From contig CAYWZO010000002.1 of assembly GCA_964462865.1 (NCBI GenBank), positions 820-64,819 of the forward strand: a stretch of 64,000 bases of DNA, read 5' to 3'. Within the stretch, counting starts at the first letter, position 1, and every line of letters begins with the position of its first letter. Positions 15,211 through 23,132 of the stretch are shown here, piece after piece. The notes below the pieces were generated by a model, which saw only the letters and a list, made by a program, of their open reading frames with translations, was not told the DNA's origin and ran no database searches. This stretch comes from an uncultured Dehalococcoidaceae bacterium. GTDB taxonomy: Bacteria > Chloroflexota > Dehalococcoidia > Dehalococcoidales > RBG-16-60-22. The position numbers and the translations under genes are program-made.

Positions 15211-17409
15211 CTATTTCTTGCCGAGTTCCGGATTCACGGTATAGAATTCCAGCCCTCCGAGCGAGTCGAAACCAGAGTCCCGGAAAGAGAGCCGGTAACA
15301 CTGATATGGCCTGGGGATATAGACCGGGAAAGAAAGCCAGTCCCCGTTGAGCTTGTCGCGGTCAATCCCGAGCACGGCCAGCGGCTCCCAGTCCTCACCT
15401 TCGCTGCTGCCCTCGAAGAGAGTGCTGTTGCCCTCCGGCATCCCGTCGGCATGGCCGGCCCGCGGAAGGAGCCGCAGAACGGAGACAGCTTGAGGGGCCA
15501 TCAGGTCGACCTCGAGGAACGGCGCTTCATCTCCGGGGGCGGGCTGCCAGTAGCCGCCTTCAGTAACGATTTTCCCCGGCGCGGTATCCACAGAGGCGGC
15601 GCTGCTCCCCGCTATCTGACCGGCCTCCAGCGGGAGCTGCCGGTGGAGGGAAGGCACGGCGGTGTTACTCCCGGGCACCAGGTGCGACGTGCCGAAAGGC
15701 CCCCAGGAAATGTCCACCACCATGGAGCCGTAAGGCGACCAGGCCAGCACCGGGTAATTGCTCTCGAAGTAGCGGCGGTATTTCTCCAGCTGCTCGCCCT
15801 GGTCAATAATATTCATAACGACGTTATGCTTGGAGAAGAAGAAGTAATGGGGTCTACTCGCCGCCTCCCAGTTGGGGCTGGAGCGTGCCAGCGTGGTGAC
15901 ATAAGCCCGGGCAACATCACCGTCCACCACGGCCGCCAAAGGCATCTGGCCGATGACCCAGCTTTCGGTAAAGTACGCCACGTTATGCGGGGTAACGTTC
16001 GTCCAGAAACCGTGACCGCGGAACTGCTTGAGAATGTCCAGCTCACGCACGGTGATTTCCGAATATAAAGCCCCCGGCCCGTCGGAGGAGATACGGCTCA
16101 AACTGATGCCCTGCCACAAAGCGGCGCCGGCCGCGGCCACGAAGGCTAAAACCGGTAGTAAGGACAGCGTAACCAGACTACGCCACCCCTGCCGGCCGGA
16201 CTTTTGCCACCACTCGGAGACGAGCAACGCCACTTCGCCAAGGAGGAAGCCACCGGCCATAGCGATGGGTAAAGCAGTTGTAATGGGAAGCGGGTCGGCC
16301 TGGCCGTGCGCCTGGAAGATTAAATGCCAGGAGATATTGGCCACCGTGAAGATGGCCAGCAACTTAAAAGATGTAATTGTGGTGCGGTGGCGCCGCCTCA
16401 GGTAGAGCAGGAGCAGCAATCCGGCCAGTGAAATGACGATGGGTATTAAGTAATGGGAAAACTCATTGATTATCCAGGTGAAGCGGTTGCCGACCGGGGC
16501 CAACTCGTTGACGCCCCAGAGCACAATATCGTTTTGCCGGGCGAAATTGAGTATCTCCTCCCGGCCCGGCACGCCGACCAGCCGGTTACCCATAGTCAGG
16601 TACATGTCCCGGAAAGCGATATTCCAGCCCAGCACCAGCACGTTCTGAAAGAAGTGGGCCACGAGTCCTCCAGCCGTTACCGCTACGGCGCCCGCCAGAC
16701 GCCGGAAGGTCATGTTGGGGATACGCAGCAGCCACATTCCGCCCAGGGCAATCATGGTGACGACGACCTGGGTATAGTTGATCCAGCTGATGAGGAAAAC
16801 GCCGACCATACCAAGCCAGAGGAAGCGGTCCGCCTTCTGGCGGAGGGTCAGGCCCCAGCAGGCCAGGAAAGTCAGCCCGAACCAGTAAGCATAGGTAACG
16901 TGGTCGGAATTGGCCAGCACCACCCGGTTATTGATACCCAGGAATACCAGTACGCCGATACCGTGCCAGACAGAGAGGTGACGGCGGAAGAACAACCCGA
17001 CGAAGATCAGACCAAGTACAAAGATGATATTCATGGCCAGGCGTACCTCGGTCAGCGTATGAAGGCCGAGTTTGACCAGCGTGCCGATGATGATACTCAC
17101 CAGGGGCGGGAAATGCGTGTAGTACACCGGCGGGGCGTCCGGGGTCGGGTCCAGCGAATAATCGGTCAGGAACCCGCGCGATAAGAAGCCGTGGAGGTAG
17201 AAGTTATACCCGGCCATATAGTTGAGCAGCTGTTCCTCCGGGGCGCCTTCGGCCCGCAGCGGACCCTGGTTATCGGCCCACTGGACGAGGGTTGTCGTCA
17301 ATATCGCCAGCAGTACCAGCGCCATTATCGCCAGCGAGATGATGGTGCTTTTCCGCGGGCGTGGTTTATCCTGCCGTGGCATCATGTCGGTTCCTGCTGT
17401 TGTATTCAT
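15211..17409 (-). CDS. Polytopic membrane protein (YYTH-motif family, GT-C-like candidate) with one C-terminal discoidin-like domain
   Basis: About 12 TM segments, and a first loop reading EGAPEEQLLNYMAGYNF...DAPPVYYTHFPP. The C-terminus reads VDLMAPQAVSVLRLLPR...SSEGEDWEPLAVLGIDRDKLNGDWLSF...YRLSF...LEFY. It is a paralogue of 18580-21243. Confidence 0.7.
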   Translation of the reverse strand: MNTTAGTDMMPRQDKPRPRKSTIISLAIMALVLLAILTTTLVQWADNQGPLRAEGAPEEQLLNYMAGYNFYLHGFLSRGFLTDYSLDPTPDAPPVYYTHFPPLVSIIIGTLVKLGLHTLTEVRLAMNIIFVLGLIFVGLFFRRHLSVWHGIGVLVFLGINNRVVLANSDHVTYAYWFGLTFLACWGLTLRQKADRFLWLGMVGVFLISWINYTQVVVTMIALGGMWLLRIPNMTFRRLAGAVAVTAGGLVAHFFQNVLVLGWNIAFRDMYLTMGNRLVGVPGREEILNFARQNDIVLWGVNELAPVGNRFTWIINEFSHYLIPIVISLAGLLLLLYLRRRHRTTITSFKLLAIFTVANISWHLIFQAHGQADPLPITTALPIAMAGGFLLGEVALLVSEWWQKSGRQGWRSLVTLSLLPVLAFVAAAGAALWQGISLSRISSDGPGALYSEITVRELDILKQFRGHGFWTNVTPHNVAYFTESWVIGQMPLAAVVDGDVARAYVTTLARSSPNWEAASRPHYFFFSKHNVVMNIIDQGEQLEKYRRYFESNYPVLAWSPYGSMVVDISWGPFGTSHLVPGSNTAVPSLHRQLPLEAGQIAGSSAASVDTAPGKIVTEGGYWQPAPGDEAPFLEVDLMAPQAVSVLRLLPRAGHADGMPEGNSTLFEGSSEGEDWEPLAVLGIDRDKLNGDWLSFPVYIPRPYQCYRLSFRDSGFDSLGGLEFYTVNPELGKK

Positions 17410-17444
17410 ATTCTTTAATAGGCCAATAGGATTTCCTCCGAGTT

Positions 17445-21243: not shown

Positions 21244-23132
21244 CCTGAAGTCTCTCCGTGAAAAGTCGCCAGGTAATTCTTGAACTTTATGTCATCTACC
21301 CGGAAAAGATAGAAGCTCCGGGGTGCGAAAGATGCGGTATCCCCGTAAGGCACGGGGATGGTGCCGTAAAGTCCCGTCCAGTAATCGGCTTCGTAGAATG
21401 TAACCGCTGTTCCCCCGATGTTCTGCGCCCAGCGGCCGTAGTCCCTGCCGATGCCGCCATCATCTACCAGCACGTAAAGAGCCACGCGGCTGGCCGGATT
21501 ATCTGCTGACAGCCCGGCGCGAATATCCGCTAACTCTTTAATGGCCGTCACCGCCTGTCCTGTATCTCTGGTGTACTCTACCCTCCGTCCCGATTCGTAC
21601 TCGTAACCGGGGAAGGGGTAACGGGGGTGGCCGGTCTCCGCCACGCGGAAGTTCGTCAATACGATGTCCCCGTACTCGGTATTCTCGCCGATAAATCCGC
21701 CCAGCGCCTTGATTTCAGCGGGATAGACGCCGTCGTACATGTCCAGGCGCTGGTCATGCTCGGAAAAGCGGAAAGGCCGGCCGGAAAGCCGGTCCTGAAG
21801 AGTCGGAACGATGATGATAACAACCACCAGCAGCACCAGGACACGCACTGCCAGCTTCTCGGTATTCAGGCGGAAATAGTGATAGATATTGACAACGCAA
21901 TAGCCCAGCGCCAGCCCGAAGAAGGGCAGCACCGGCCGGTAGGCCGAACCGGCCTGGGTCACCGTGGACTGCAACATCAGCACCCAGAAGGAGCCACCCG
22001 CTATAAAGAAGACCAGCAGCAGCCACCACTGGGACCAGAGACCGCTGGCCGTAGCCTCCTGATTCTGCCGCCGCAACCGCCAGGCCAGCCAGCCGGACAC
22101 AGCCAGCAGGGCCAGCAGGATGCCTATTTCGAACCTCATGTTATTCCAGAGGTCGGCCTCGATCTTACGCAAGGCTTCCCAGATGGTGAAACCGCGGTAG
22201 TCTATTTCCTCGGCCAGCTGGAAGCCGGTGGTCCGTCGCATGAGCGCGGAGGTATAATCAATGAAGGCGTTCCTGACGCCGCCCAGGGCCGCCGCTACCT
22301 GGATAAAATGGCCTACCTGCCCCACTACCGGTGCCGCGATGATGAGGACAGCGGTACGCCACCTCTGCAGCACCTTACGCCCGTGGCGGGCCCAGAGGTA
22401 ACCGAGCCCAAAAACGCCTGCCCAGGGAATGAACTCCGGAGAATTTACAGATAGCAGGGCGAACATCAGCCAGGCGCCGGCATAGGGAATATAGCGTTTC
22501 CATCCGGTGGCGCCGGGGCGGCTCTCGGCCAGCACAAACAGAAAAGCGGCGCTGAAGGCGAAGAAAATATCGTACACATATACGGAAATATTATCGAAAA
22601 AGCGTAAAAATACCAGGCTGCTGCCCATAACCACGGTGCTGACCAGAGAGATGCCGCGGCCGAACAGCCGCAGCGCCGTGAGATACCAGAGTAACAACGA
22701 AAAGACCGAAAAAAAGGCCGCGATTTTATACAGCACCGGCAGTCCACCGACCCCAAGCTTTTCCCAGATTCCCACCACTATCGCGTCGAACGGTCCGTAG
22801 TGCGTGTAATAAATGCTGGCGTTGCGTACCTCCGGCAGCTCCGTCTGATAGGCATACCAGCCGCGGGAGAACTCCGGGTACCCGACGGTCATGTTGGAGA
22901 GGAAATAATGCCGGGCGAACCCTTCCTCCGCGAAGCGGTCCCCGGCCATGAGAATCAGGTAATCATTAAAGGGCGTAAAGCTTAAACGTTCGCCGCCTTC
23001 CGGTTGCGAATACGCCGGCCGGTCTATCTTGACCAAGCCCCAGATAAGCAAGCAGACCAGGAACAGCCCCAGAGCCAGGTGCTGCCAGTTATTCTTGAGC
23101 CAGGTACAGGTATTCTTTATCTTTGCGGGCAT
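21240..23132 (-). CDS. Polytopic membrane protein, divergent third member of the YYTH-motif family (no lectin domain)
   Basis: The first loop reads FNDYLILMAGDRFAEEGF...ASIYYTHYGPF, followed by about 11 further TM segments and a C-terminal soluble domain. ATGATGA overlap with the next gene. Confidence 0.6.
   Translation of the reverse strand: MPAKIKNTCTWLKNNWQHLALGLFLVCLLIWGLVKIDRPAYSQPEGGERLSFTPFNDYLILMAGDRFAEEGFARHYFLSNMTVGYPEFSRGWYAYQTELPEVRNASIYYTHYGPFDAIVVGIWEKLGVGGLPVLYKIAAFFSVFSLLLWYLTALRLFGRGISLVSTVVMGSSLVFLRFFDNISVYVYDIFFAFSAAFLFVLAESRPGATGWKRYIPYAGAWLMFALLSVNSPEFIPWAGVFGLGYLWARHGRKVLQRWRTAVLIIAAPVVGQVGHFIQVAAALGGVRNAFIDYTSALMRRTTGFQLAEEIDYRGFTIWEALRKIEADLWNNMRFEIGILLALLAVSGWLAWRLRRQNQEATASGLWSQWWLLLVFFIAGGSFWVLMLQSTVTQAGSAYRPVLPFFGLALGYCVVNIYHYFRLNTEKLAVRVLVLLVVVIIIVPTLQDRLSGRPFRFSEHDQRLDMYDGVYPAEIKALGGFIGENTEYGDIVLTNFRVAETGHPRYPFPGYEYESGRRVEYTRDTGQAVTAIKELADIRAGLSADNPASRVALYVLVDDGGIGRDYGRWAQNIGGTAVTFYEADYWTGLYGTIPVPYGDTASFAPRSFYLFRVDDIKFKNYLATFHGETSG

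Follow-up and report, generated by a model that had tools for sequence, protein, structure and literature searches.

What do three large polytopic membrane proteins, encoded within one short interval of a genome fragment from an uncultured Dehalococcoidaceae bacterium, do for the cell that carries them? The fragment studied here (the window) is a stretch of 64,000 nucleotides (nt) of contig CAYWZO010000002.1, and the genes in question, for proteins of 732, 887 and 630 amino acids (aa), lie between positions 15211 and 23132. An initial annotation, made from the sequence alone, grouped them as an apparently unrecognised membrane family marked by a YYTH motif and suggested either a new clade of GT-C glycosyltransferases or a new fold. 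We consider it likely that the three are paralogous integral-membrane glycosyltransferases with a GT-C fold (GT-C_A type), that they form a very divergent and uncurated branch of the PMT_2 (ArnT/GT39-like) enzymes, and that they build a surface glycan. This assigns a fold and a probable activity to membrane proteins that are rare and had been entirely without annotation.

The interval holds the three open reading frames (ORFs) at the lengths first given, all on the minus strand (Table 1), together with a fourth gene that had gone unmentioned (17445-18587), which encodes a 380-aa lipoprotein with two discoidin domains. The proposed paralogy proved to be far beyond chance. BLASTP aligns the 732-aa and 887-aa proteins at 40 % identity across 528 aa (E 5e-119), the match between the 732-aa and 630-aa proteins is marginal at this level (23 % across 111 aa, E 3.6e-6), and a profile-profile comparison of the 732-type and 630-type alignments with hhalign gives a probability of 99.9 % (E 1.5e-31) over 610 aligned columns. 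Orthologues of each paralogue, at 50-60 % identity, are present in other metagenomic contigs; thus the duplications are old and all three copies have been maintained. The YYTH motif is invariant in the three-way alignment, corresponds to residues 96-99 of the 732-aa protein at the nucleotides assigned to it (17113-17124), and closes the acidic first outer loop in all three proteins as had been described, reading PPVYYTHFPPL (732 aa), PPVYYTHMPSL (887 aa) and ASIYYTHYGPF (630 aa).

Membrane topology was read from the order of helices in AlphaFold2 (AF2) models together with the positive-inside rule, that is, from a lysine/arginine (K/R)-rich N-terminus (5 of 22 residues) and K/R-rich even-numbered loops. 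The loop that follows the first transmembrane (TM) helix is acidic, with 7-12 D/E against 2-7 K/R. The modelled topology that fits these features has the N-terminus inside, the first loop extracytoplasmic and the C-terminal domains outside, so that the extracytoplasmic placement of the first loop in the initial annotation is upheld by both the K/R-rich N-terminus and the acidic loop. Its helix count is not. One TM segment followed by about 11 more had been expected, whereas AF2 secondary structure and the positive-inside rule give 11 in total (1 + 10). In the 732-aa model, TM1 spans residues 19-45 and is followed by a helix at residues 57-73. A soluble domain after the membrane part had also been noted, and it is indeed present as an alpha/beta periplasmic domain; in the 732-aa protein it is followed by a single discoidin domain and in the 887-aa protein by two, and the 630-aa protein has no such domain. 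The 887-aa protein matches Pfam PF00754 (F5_F8_type_C) in two stretches at 67.6 bits (cutoff 28.2; 1.5e-18). By sequence the discoidin domain of the 732-aa protein is sub-threshold for the same family (20.9 bits, cutoff 28.2); the modelled domain matches discoidin and CBM32 structures and is 39-40 % identical to the domains of the 887-aa protein.

The predicted structures identify the fold. The model of the 630-aa protein, built from a 139-sequence alignment, has a pLDDT of 93.3 and a pTM of 0.93, and its first 35 Foldseek matches in the PDB are exclusively GT-C enzymes, including STT3, AglB, PglB, ALG9, ALG12, ArnT, AftA/B, Pmt1/2/4, PimE and EmbB; below rank 35 come unrelated transporters with probability <0.2. 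The best matches are STT3 (8b6l_I, E 2.5e-8) and PglB (2.5e-6), with full-length TM-scores of ~0.5; ArnT (5ezm/5f15) follows at E 1.4e-5 and a TMt of 0.50-0.53, and Pmt1, Pmt2 and Pmt4 give weak, partial matches (E 0.015-0.065). The 732-aa protein was modelled separately from 19 homologues with moderate confidence (pLDDT 72), and its best full-length matches are AftA (top), DPY19, PglB, ArnT and STT3. In both models every top Foldseek match is a GT-C enzyme. By these models the three proteins have the GT-C fold and hence not a new one. The GT-C reading first drawn from the acidic loop after TM1 is therefore borne out by the 35 top matches, and a structure search that might have led to a non-glycosyltransferase family led to GT-C enzymes. 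The second suggestion, a new fold, is ruled out by the GT-C-only top matches of both models, with full-length TM-scores of ~0.5 to STT3, AglB and ArnT.

The same ranking brings in a rival explanation, in which the proteins would act like the oligosaccharyltransferases (OSTs) STT3, AglB and PglB and move a preassembled oligosaccharide as one block to a protein or other acceptor, from a polyprenyl-diphosphate carrier that a Wzx-like protein has flipped. These three are the best full-length matches with the alpha/beta domain included (E 2.5e-8 to 2.5e-6, TMq 0.45-0.50), and a Wzx-type flippase adjoins the GT-C genes. However, the WWD(Y/W)G motif (WWDYG) is absent from all three paralogues, none of them has an STT3 Pfam match, they have 11 TM helices against 13, and three tandem paralogues would be unusual for OSTs. 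The gene cluster contains one soluble glycosyltransferase, too few for the assembly of an oligosaccharide in the cytoplasm. We regard OST-like transfer as very unlikely. Membership in the OST family itself was rejected for lack of the WWD motif.

The sequence searches lead from the window proteins to PMT_2 by way of intermediates. An exhaustive search with the family profile against 1.84 billion cluster representatives (50 % identity) found 596 representatives at E <= 0.001, 325 at <= 1e-10 and 43 at <= 1e-30. A word-index search over 5.8 billion proteins gave 8 matches for the 732-aa query and 10 for the 630-aa query, all metagenomic and none functionally named, and the corresponding profile search recovered only the 10 proteins of the 630-type that were already known. 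Among GTDB species representatives, 28 pattern matches included no relative, a search with the limited sensitivity of two peptide patterns. Of 67 relatives that were sampled, 10 match PMT_2 (PF13231), with no other GT-C Pfam family among them, and one carries an AftD-type carbohydrate-binding module (CBM; PF24607). Two relatives make the connection explicit. P0054 and P0064 are reached by the family profile at E 1.6e-31 and 1.1e-29, pass the PMT_2 gathering score of 26.1 bits with 32.3 and 30.9 bits, and both keep YYTHYPPL; P0064 is listed at NCBI as HUT56553.1 under the name 'glycosyltransferase family 39 protein [Phycisphaerae bacterium]'. PMT_2 starts at the PPL right after YYTH, with position 3 of the model on P107 of P0054, the first proline of S-Y-Y-T-H-Y-P-P-L. 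Thus, judged from these alignments, YYTH-x-PP is a variant form of the TM2 entry motif (H/K)PP(L) of PMT/ArnT-type enzymes. The window proteins themselves have no match to PMT_2 at E <= 10 and are linked to it transitively, through P0054 and P0064. The initial statement that the motif cannot be matched to a named GT-C family is therefore not supported, and the description of the family as unrecognised was overstated: the clade is uncurated, and it is tied to PMT_2/GT39-like enzymes via intermediates.

Conservation was counted over 168 representatives in the numbering of the 732-aa protein (Table 1). The block from H252 to R276 is the most conserved of the family. The acidic first loop, on which the initial annotation had based its comparison with GT-C enzymes, is predicted to be extracytoplasmic and carries a conserved acid: 110 of 111 family representatives have a D or E within a 9-residue stretch that opens the first juxtamembrane helix. 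From its position we infer a catalytic role for E58/E59 (D57 in the 630-aa type). The equivalent motifs of the 630-aa protein are F55-N-D57, IYYTH111, H275..Q278, D292 and R299. Since the N-terminus is predicted to be inside, the conserved polar residues would all be on the outer side of the membrane, as they are in GT-C_A enzymes, and this includes the modelled position of the H252-R276 block.

It could be argued that one or more of the three proteins has lost catalysis and serves as a scaffold or pseudo-enzyme, or that a GT-C-like fold serves another function here, such as that of a transporter or polymer exporter. The register of the loop-1 acid is not fixed, with D or E at column 59 in only 61 % of the family. 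On the other hand, Y97, H99, H252, Q255, D268 and R276, every polar residue conserved across the family, are retained in all three paralogues, and their orthologues at 50-60 % identity indicate purifying selection on each of them. All characterised proteins with a GT-C fold are, to our knowledge, glycosyltransferases. We find loss of catalysis or a change of function most improbable.

The genomic context is that of a probable glycan assembly cluster. On the minus strand the operon runs from the flippase through the 630-aa GT-C, the 887-aa GT-C, the 380-aa lipoprotein and the 732-aa GT-C to the 413-aa lipoprotein, and neighbouring genes either overlap, by 4-44 nt, or lie 7-35 nt apart; the 44-nt overlap is the one between the flippase gene and the start of the 630-aa gene, and the gene of the 413-aa lipoprotein begins 7 nt past the stop of the 732-aa gene. 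The domains of the 380-aa lipoprotein are 39-48 % identical to the discoidin domains of the GT-C fusions. Further upstream on the same strand are genes for a 1374-aa CotH/discoidin/beta-helix protein, DUF4956, VTC and another double-discoidin protein; two B12-radical-SAM enzymes, a DegT aminotransferase, a 706-aa polytopic protein and a single family 2 glycosyltransferase (GT2); and a thiamine-dependent E1 alpha/beta pair, two epimerase/dehydratases and an HldE-like kinase/nucleotidyltransferase. Searched against PDB sequences, the GT2 finds its best matches in ArnC (1.9e-7, full catalytic domain), DPMS and GtrB, all of them polyprenyl-phosphate sugar synthases. It is the one soluble glycosyltransferase of the whole cluster.

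Table 1. Features of the locus (window coordinates) and conservation of residues (732-aa numbering)
Feature	Coordinates	Strand	Evidence	Conservation
732-aa GT-C paralogue, one C-terminal discoidin domain (~nt 15235-15612)	15211..17409	-	ORF; AF2 + Foldseek	
887-aa GT-C paralogue, two C-terminal F5/8-type-C (discoidin/CBM32-like) domains (~nt 18583-19491)	18580..21243	-	ORF; Pfam; alignment	
630-aa GT-C paralogue, 11 TM + C-terminal alpha/beta extracytoplasmic domain, without discoidin	21240..23132	-	ORF; AF2; Foldseek; hhalign	
413-aa predicted lipoprotein (lipobox LSGC), two discoidin domains, last cassette gene	13962..15203	-	ORF; Pfam; BLASTP	
380-aa predicted lipoprotein (lipobox IISC), two discoidin domains, between two GT-C genes	17445..18587	-	Pfam 1e-13	
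466-aa MOP-superfamily (Polysacc_synt/Wzx-like) flippase	23089..24489	-	PF01943, 33.4 bits (cutoff 28.2)	
251-aa GT2, candidate polyprenyl-phosphate sugar synthase	37598..38353	-	Glycos_transf_2, 2.2e-23	
Codons of Y96-Y97-T98-H99 of the 732-aa protein, TM2 entry	17113..17124	-	coordinate arithmetic + alignment	
Codons of E58-E59, candidate catalytic acid(s), start of first juxtamembrane helix of outer loop 1	17233..17238	-	conservation + model	
Codons of H252..Q255..G261..D268..R276, outer end of TM7 + next loop helix (predicted)	16582..16656	-	conservation	
E59				61 % acidic
N69, F70, G74, F75				conserved
D83				57 %
Y97				161/165 representatives
H99				159/164 representatives
P101, P102				conserved
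R123				conserved
D169				73 % acidic
H252				142/160
Q255				conserved
G261				154/161
D/E268				97 %
R276				138/152
T470, N471				conserved

Discoidin domains and sugar genes are prominent in the region. About ten discoidin units, with mutual identities of 30-48 %, are spread across six proteins of the cluster (window positions 13962-31281, minus strand). The two units of a 403-aa protein (30070-31281) are 79 % identical, and thus point to a recent internal duplication. Between 31298 and 43019 (minus strand) are the sugar-nucleotide genes, among them the HldE-like protein with its domain order reversed (nucleotidyltransferase, then PfkB kinase). The content of this gene set suggests an unusual donor sugar.

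The arrangement recurs in other contigs. One of them (L001) keeps the order of five genes (630-type, 887-type, lipoprotein, 732-type, discoidin protein), with a discoidin lipoprotein in the position of the gene at 17445-18587, and additionally carries the flippase, a radical-SAM gene, DUF4956 and VTC. A second (L002) has three paralogues, two discoidin proteins, the flippase and YfhO; in both contigs the Polysacc_synt gene adjoins the cassette. L003 and L004 have a GT2, YfhO and a discoidin-fused family member, followed by VTC, DUF4956 and a 1370-aa protein; their GT2 lies upstream of the GT-C genes and is 47 % identical to that of the window. L005 combines heptose genes, a YfhO-like protein and a family member. 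YfhO genes thus stand beside family members in L002-L005, and SIS and HAD heptose genes were found in related loci. The triad of VTC (256 aa), DUF4956 (222 aa) and the ~1370-aa protein, the last of which combines weak matches to CotH, discoidin and right-handed beta-helix domains, occupies 24437-30060 (minus strand) of the window, is found in L001, L003 and L004, and so accompanies the GT-C cassette in several unrelated contigs. In L005, a JGI metagenome contig, a heliorhodopsin gene (13335-14102) lies just downstream of a 982-aa family member with discoidin and PPC domains.

The interleaved lipoproteins also bear on the acceptor. The three proteins might be protein O-glycosyltransferases (PMT/TMTC/bacterial GT39-like) that move sugar from polyprenyl phosphate to Ser/Thr, with the discoidin lipoproteins or S-layer proteins as substrates. 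Such a role would agree with PMT_2 as the only curated sequence family reached and with the GT39 name of one relative, and the lipoprotein genes are strictly interleaved and co-conserved with the GT-C genes. Cultured Dehalococcoides are without peptidoglycan and have a proteinaceous S-layer. Yet PMT_2 includes lipid- and glycan-directed enzymes such as ArnT, the Pfam families PF02366 (PMT), MIR and PMT_4TMC have no match in the window paralogues, and no conspicuous Ser/Thr-rich linkers were seen on inspection of the lipoprotein sequences. The fused domains are discoidin/CBM32 folds of the carbohydrate-binding type and are thus more readily accounted for as modules that bind a glycan acceptor. 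Protein O-glycosylation appears unlikely to us. Assignment to PMT/GT39 proper was ruled out because PMT and MIR domains are lacking.

We therefore return to the assembly of a surface glycan by GT-C enzymes. An operon that joins the GT-C genes with a flippase, an ArnC/DPMS-like GT2, discoidin proteins and unusual-sugar genes points to outer-face transfer from polyprenyl-phosphate sugars. In the mechanism that we propose, a cytoplasmic ArnC/DPMS-like GT2 would load the sugar onto polyprenyl phosphate, the adjacent MOP flippase would carry the lipid-linked sugar across the membrane, and the three GT-Cs would add it to the growing surface glycan, differing from one another in linkage or acceptor specificity. 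The active site would lie on the outer face and consist of the acid of the loop helix (E58/E59 or D57), the Y-T-H-x-P-P entry of TM2 and H..Q..(D/E)..R after TM7. The discoidin/CBM32-like domains, either fused or carried by the two interleaved membrane-anchored lipoproteins, would hold the acceptor glycan.

Several observations weigh against this proposal, some of them against the family assignment and others against the donor. The membrane domain of the three window proteins is without a Pfam match, even at E <= 10, and is unmatched in the NCBIfam search, and the family profiles gave nothing meaningful against PDB sequences; thus the clade of the window proteins and their close orthologues is uncurated and rare. 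The hhalign comparison of E. coli ArnT with the family is not significant (probability 15 %, E 0.0018); the sole local alignment places Y58-F-E-K-P62 of ArnT opposite Y-T-H-x-P, in agreement with the mapping of the motif onto the TM2 entry though weak by itself. Because OST subunits outrank ArnT and PMT structurally, the subfamily assignment is not clean. The register of the loop-1 acid varies, with 'PEE' in the 732-aa and 887-aa proteins and 'F[SN]D' in the 630-aa protein. As to the donor, the GT2 is short (251 aa) and has none of the C-terminal TM helices of ArnC and GtrB, and flippases of the Polysacc_synt type usually carry polyprenyl-diphosphate oligosaccharides, not monophosphate sugars.

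The single soluble glycosyltransferase of the cluster favours extracytoplasmic assembly, and by analogy one may speculate that the glycan is built from lipid-linked monosaccharides in the style of arabinan synthesis. A more specific form of this idea, which we offer as doubtful, is that the cassette of three GT-Cs, two discoidin lipoproteins, GT2 and flippase is an arabinan-like, largely extracytoplasmic assembly line that polymerises and branches an unusual sugar from a single polyprenyl-phosphate donor, with the lipoproteins as processivity or acceptor-holding subunits. The sugar could be a C-branched or C-methylated amino-heptose, an idea that comes from the HldE-like gene, the E1 alpha/beta pair, the two B12-radical-SAM genes and the DegT gene. 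If this were true, the clade, once characterised, would found a new CAZy GT family.

Two further polytopic proteins of the window deserve mention. The 706-aa protein (35473-37593, minus strand) lies directly downstream of the GT2 and has no Pfam match; in L003/L004 its position is held by a 1070-aa YfhO (GT-C), to which it has no significant BLASTP similarity. A 491-aa protein (11948-13423, plus strand), beside DUF1616 (11058-11939), matches neither Pfam nor NCBIfam and has 'PIHSDEWVHY' just past its first TM helix, which resembles the 'DE' motif of the PMT type; on this resemblance it may be another GT-C. Comparison of the 491-aa and 706-aa proteins with the YYTH family by hhalign was not significant, and given these hhalign and BLASTP results we do not claim either protein as a family member. 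Elsewhere on the plus strand are alpha-glucan (GlgE-pathway) genes at 54875-62905, with DUF3417/phosphorylase, GlgE and a 1146-aa TreS-maltokinase fusion, and, at 2353-8582, the gene of an FdhA-like molybdopterin oxidoreductase that carries a NuoG-like Fe-S module at its N-terminus and, after it, that of a 1019-aa NuoF-like/GltD-like fusion. The FdhA-like protein has its closest match, at 77 % identity, in a Dehalococcoidia MAG, with several Dehalococcoidales and Chloroflexota MAGs next in rank, and on this evidence the window most likely belongs to Chloroflexota, class Dehalococcoidia.

It is important to ask what this cassette means for the organisms that carry it. The cassette is conserved in Dehalococcoidia-like genomes, and judging by its genes it probably makes a surface glycan whose building block is an unusual sugar. 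Dehalococcoidia are an abundant subsurface group whose envelope chemistry is poorly known, and the cassette is thus a reasonable target for work on glycan structure. Nothing known about GT-C enzymes is overturned by our results and a specialist would not be surprised by them; their value is as a lead into the envelope glycobiology of Dehalococcoidia.

Comparison with known systems places the family among several of them. With PMT_2/ArnT (GT83) it shares the GT-C fold, an acidic residue just past TM1 and then a juxtamembrane helix, and with ArnT in particular an aromatic-polar-x-P-P sequence at the TM2 entry (YFEKP in ArnT, YTHxP here) and a C-terminal periplasmic alpha/beta domain. It differs from ArnT in having 11 TM helices against 13 (the ArnT count is from the literature) and a His in place of the Glu-Lys pair, and from PMT_2 enzymes in the discoidin fusions, the three tandem paralogues with lipoprotein partners and the lack of a direct PMT_2 match. 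STT3/AglB/PglB (GT66) provide the best global structural match over the TM part and C-terminal domain (TM-score ~0.5), but differ from the window proteins in the presence of WWDYG, in showing no sequence match, and in their larger number of TM helices; the genomic context of the window proteins does not provide for oligosaccharide assembly. The mycobacterial EmbA/B/C and AftA-D enzymes share one polyprenyl-phosphate sugar donor outside the membrane. Like the cassette described here they comprise several paralogous GT-Cs with C-terminal CBMs, and AftA is the top structural match of the 732-aa model; unlike it they belong to another phylum with other sugar genes, have no detectable sequence similarity to the window proteins, and their CBM is not of the discoidin/CBM32-like kind.

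Three-component systems have been described in which a GT-C that bears a carbohydrate-binding module is combined with a flippase and with a GT2 or PPRS, and GT136 ORF12, EmbC and AftD are GT-C/CBM parallels for the discoidin-fused GT-Cs (PMC11127046). No sequence relationship of the window GT-Cs to GtrC, YfhO or GT136 was detected. The cassette nevertheless resembles GtrA/B/C, CsbB-GtcA-YfhO and GT136 ORF12 in uniting a GT2-type synthase, a flippase and a GT-C, with a CBM as in ORF12. It departs from them in having three GT-Cs (possibly five) per cluster instead of one, a flippase of the Polysacc_synt type and dedicated discoidin lipoproteins. The kind of system is therefore already known, namely a GT-C with a CBM in a multi-component extracytoplasmic glycosylation pathway, and it is the clade that is new to curated libraries.

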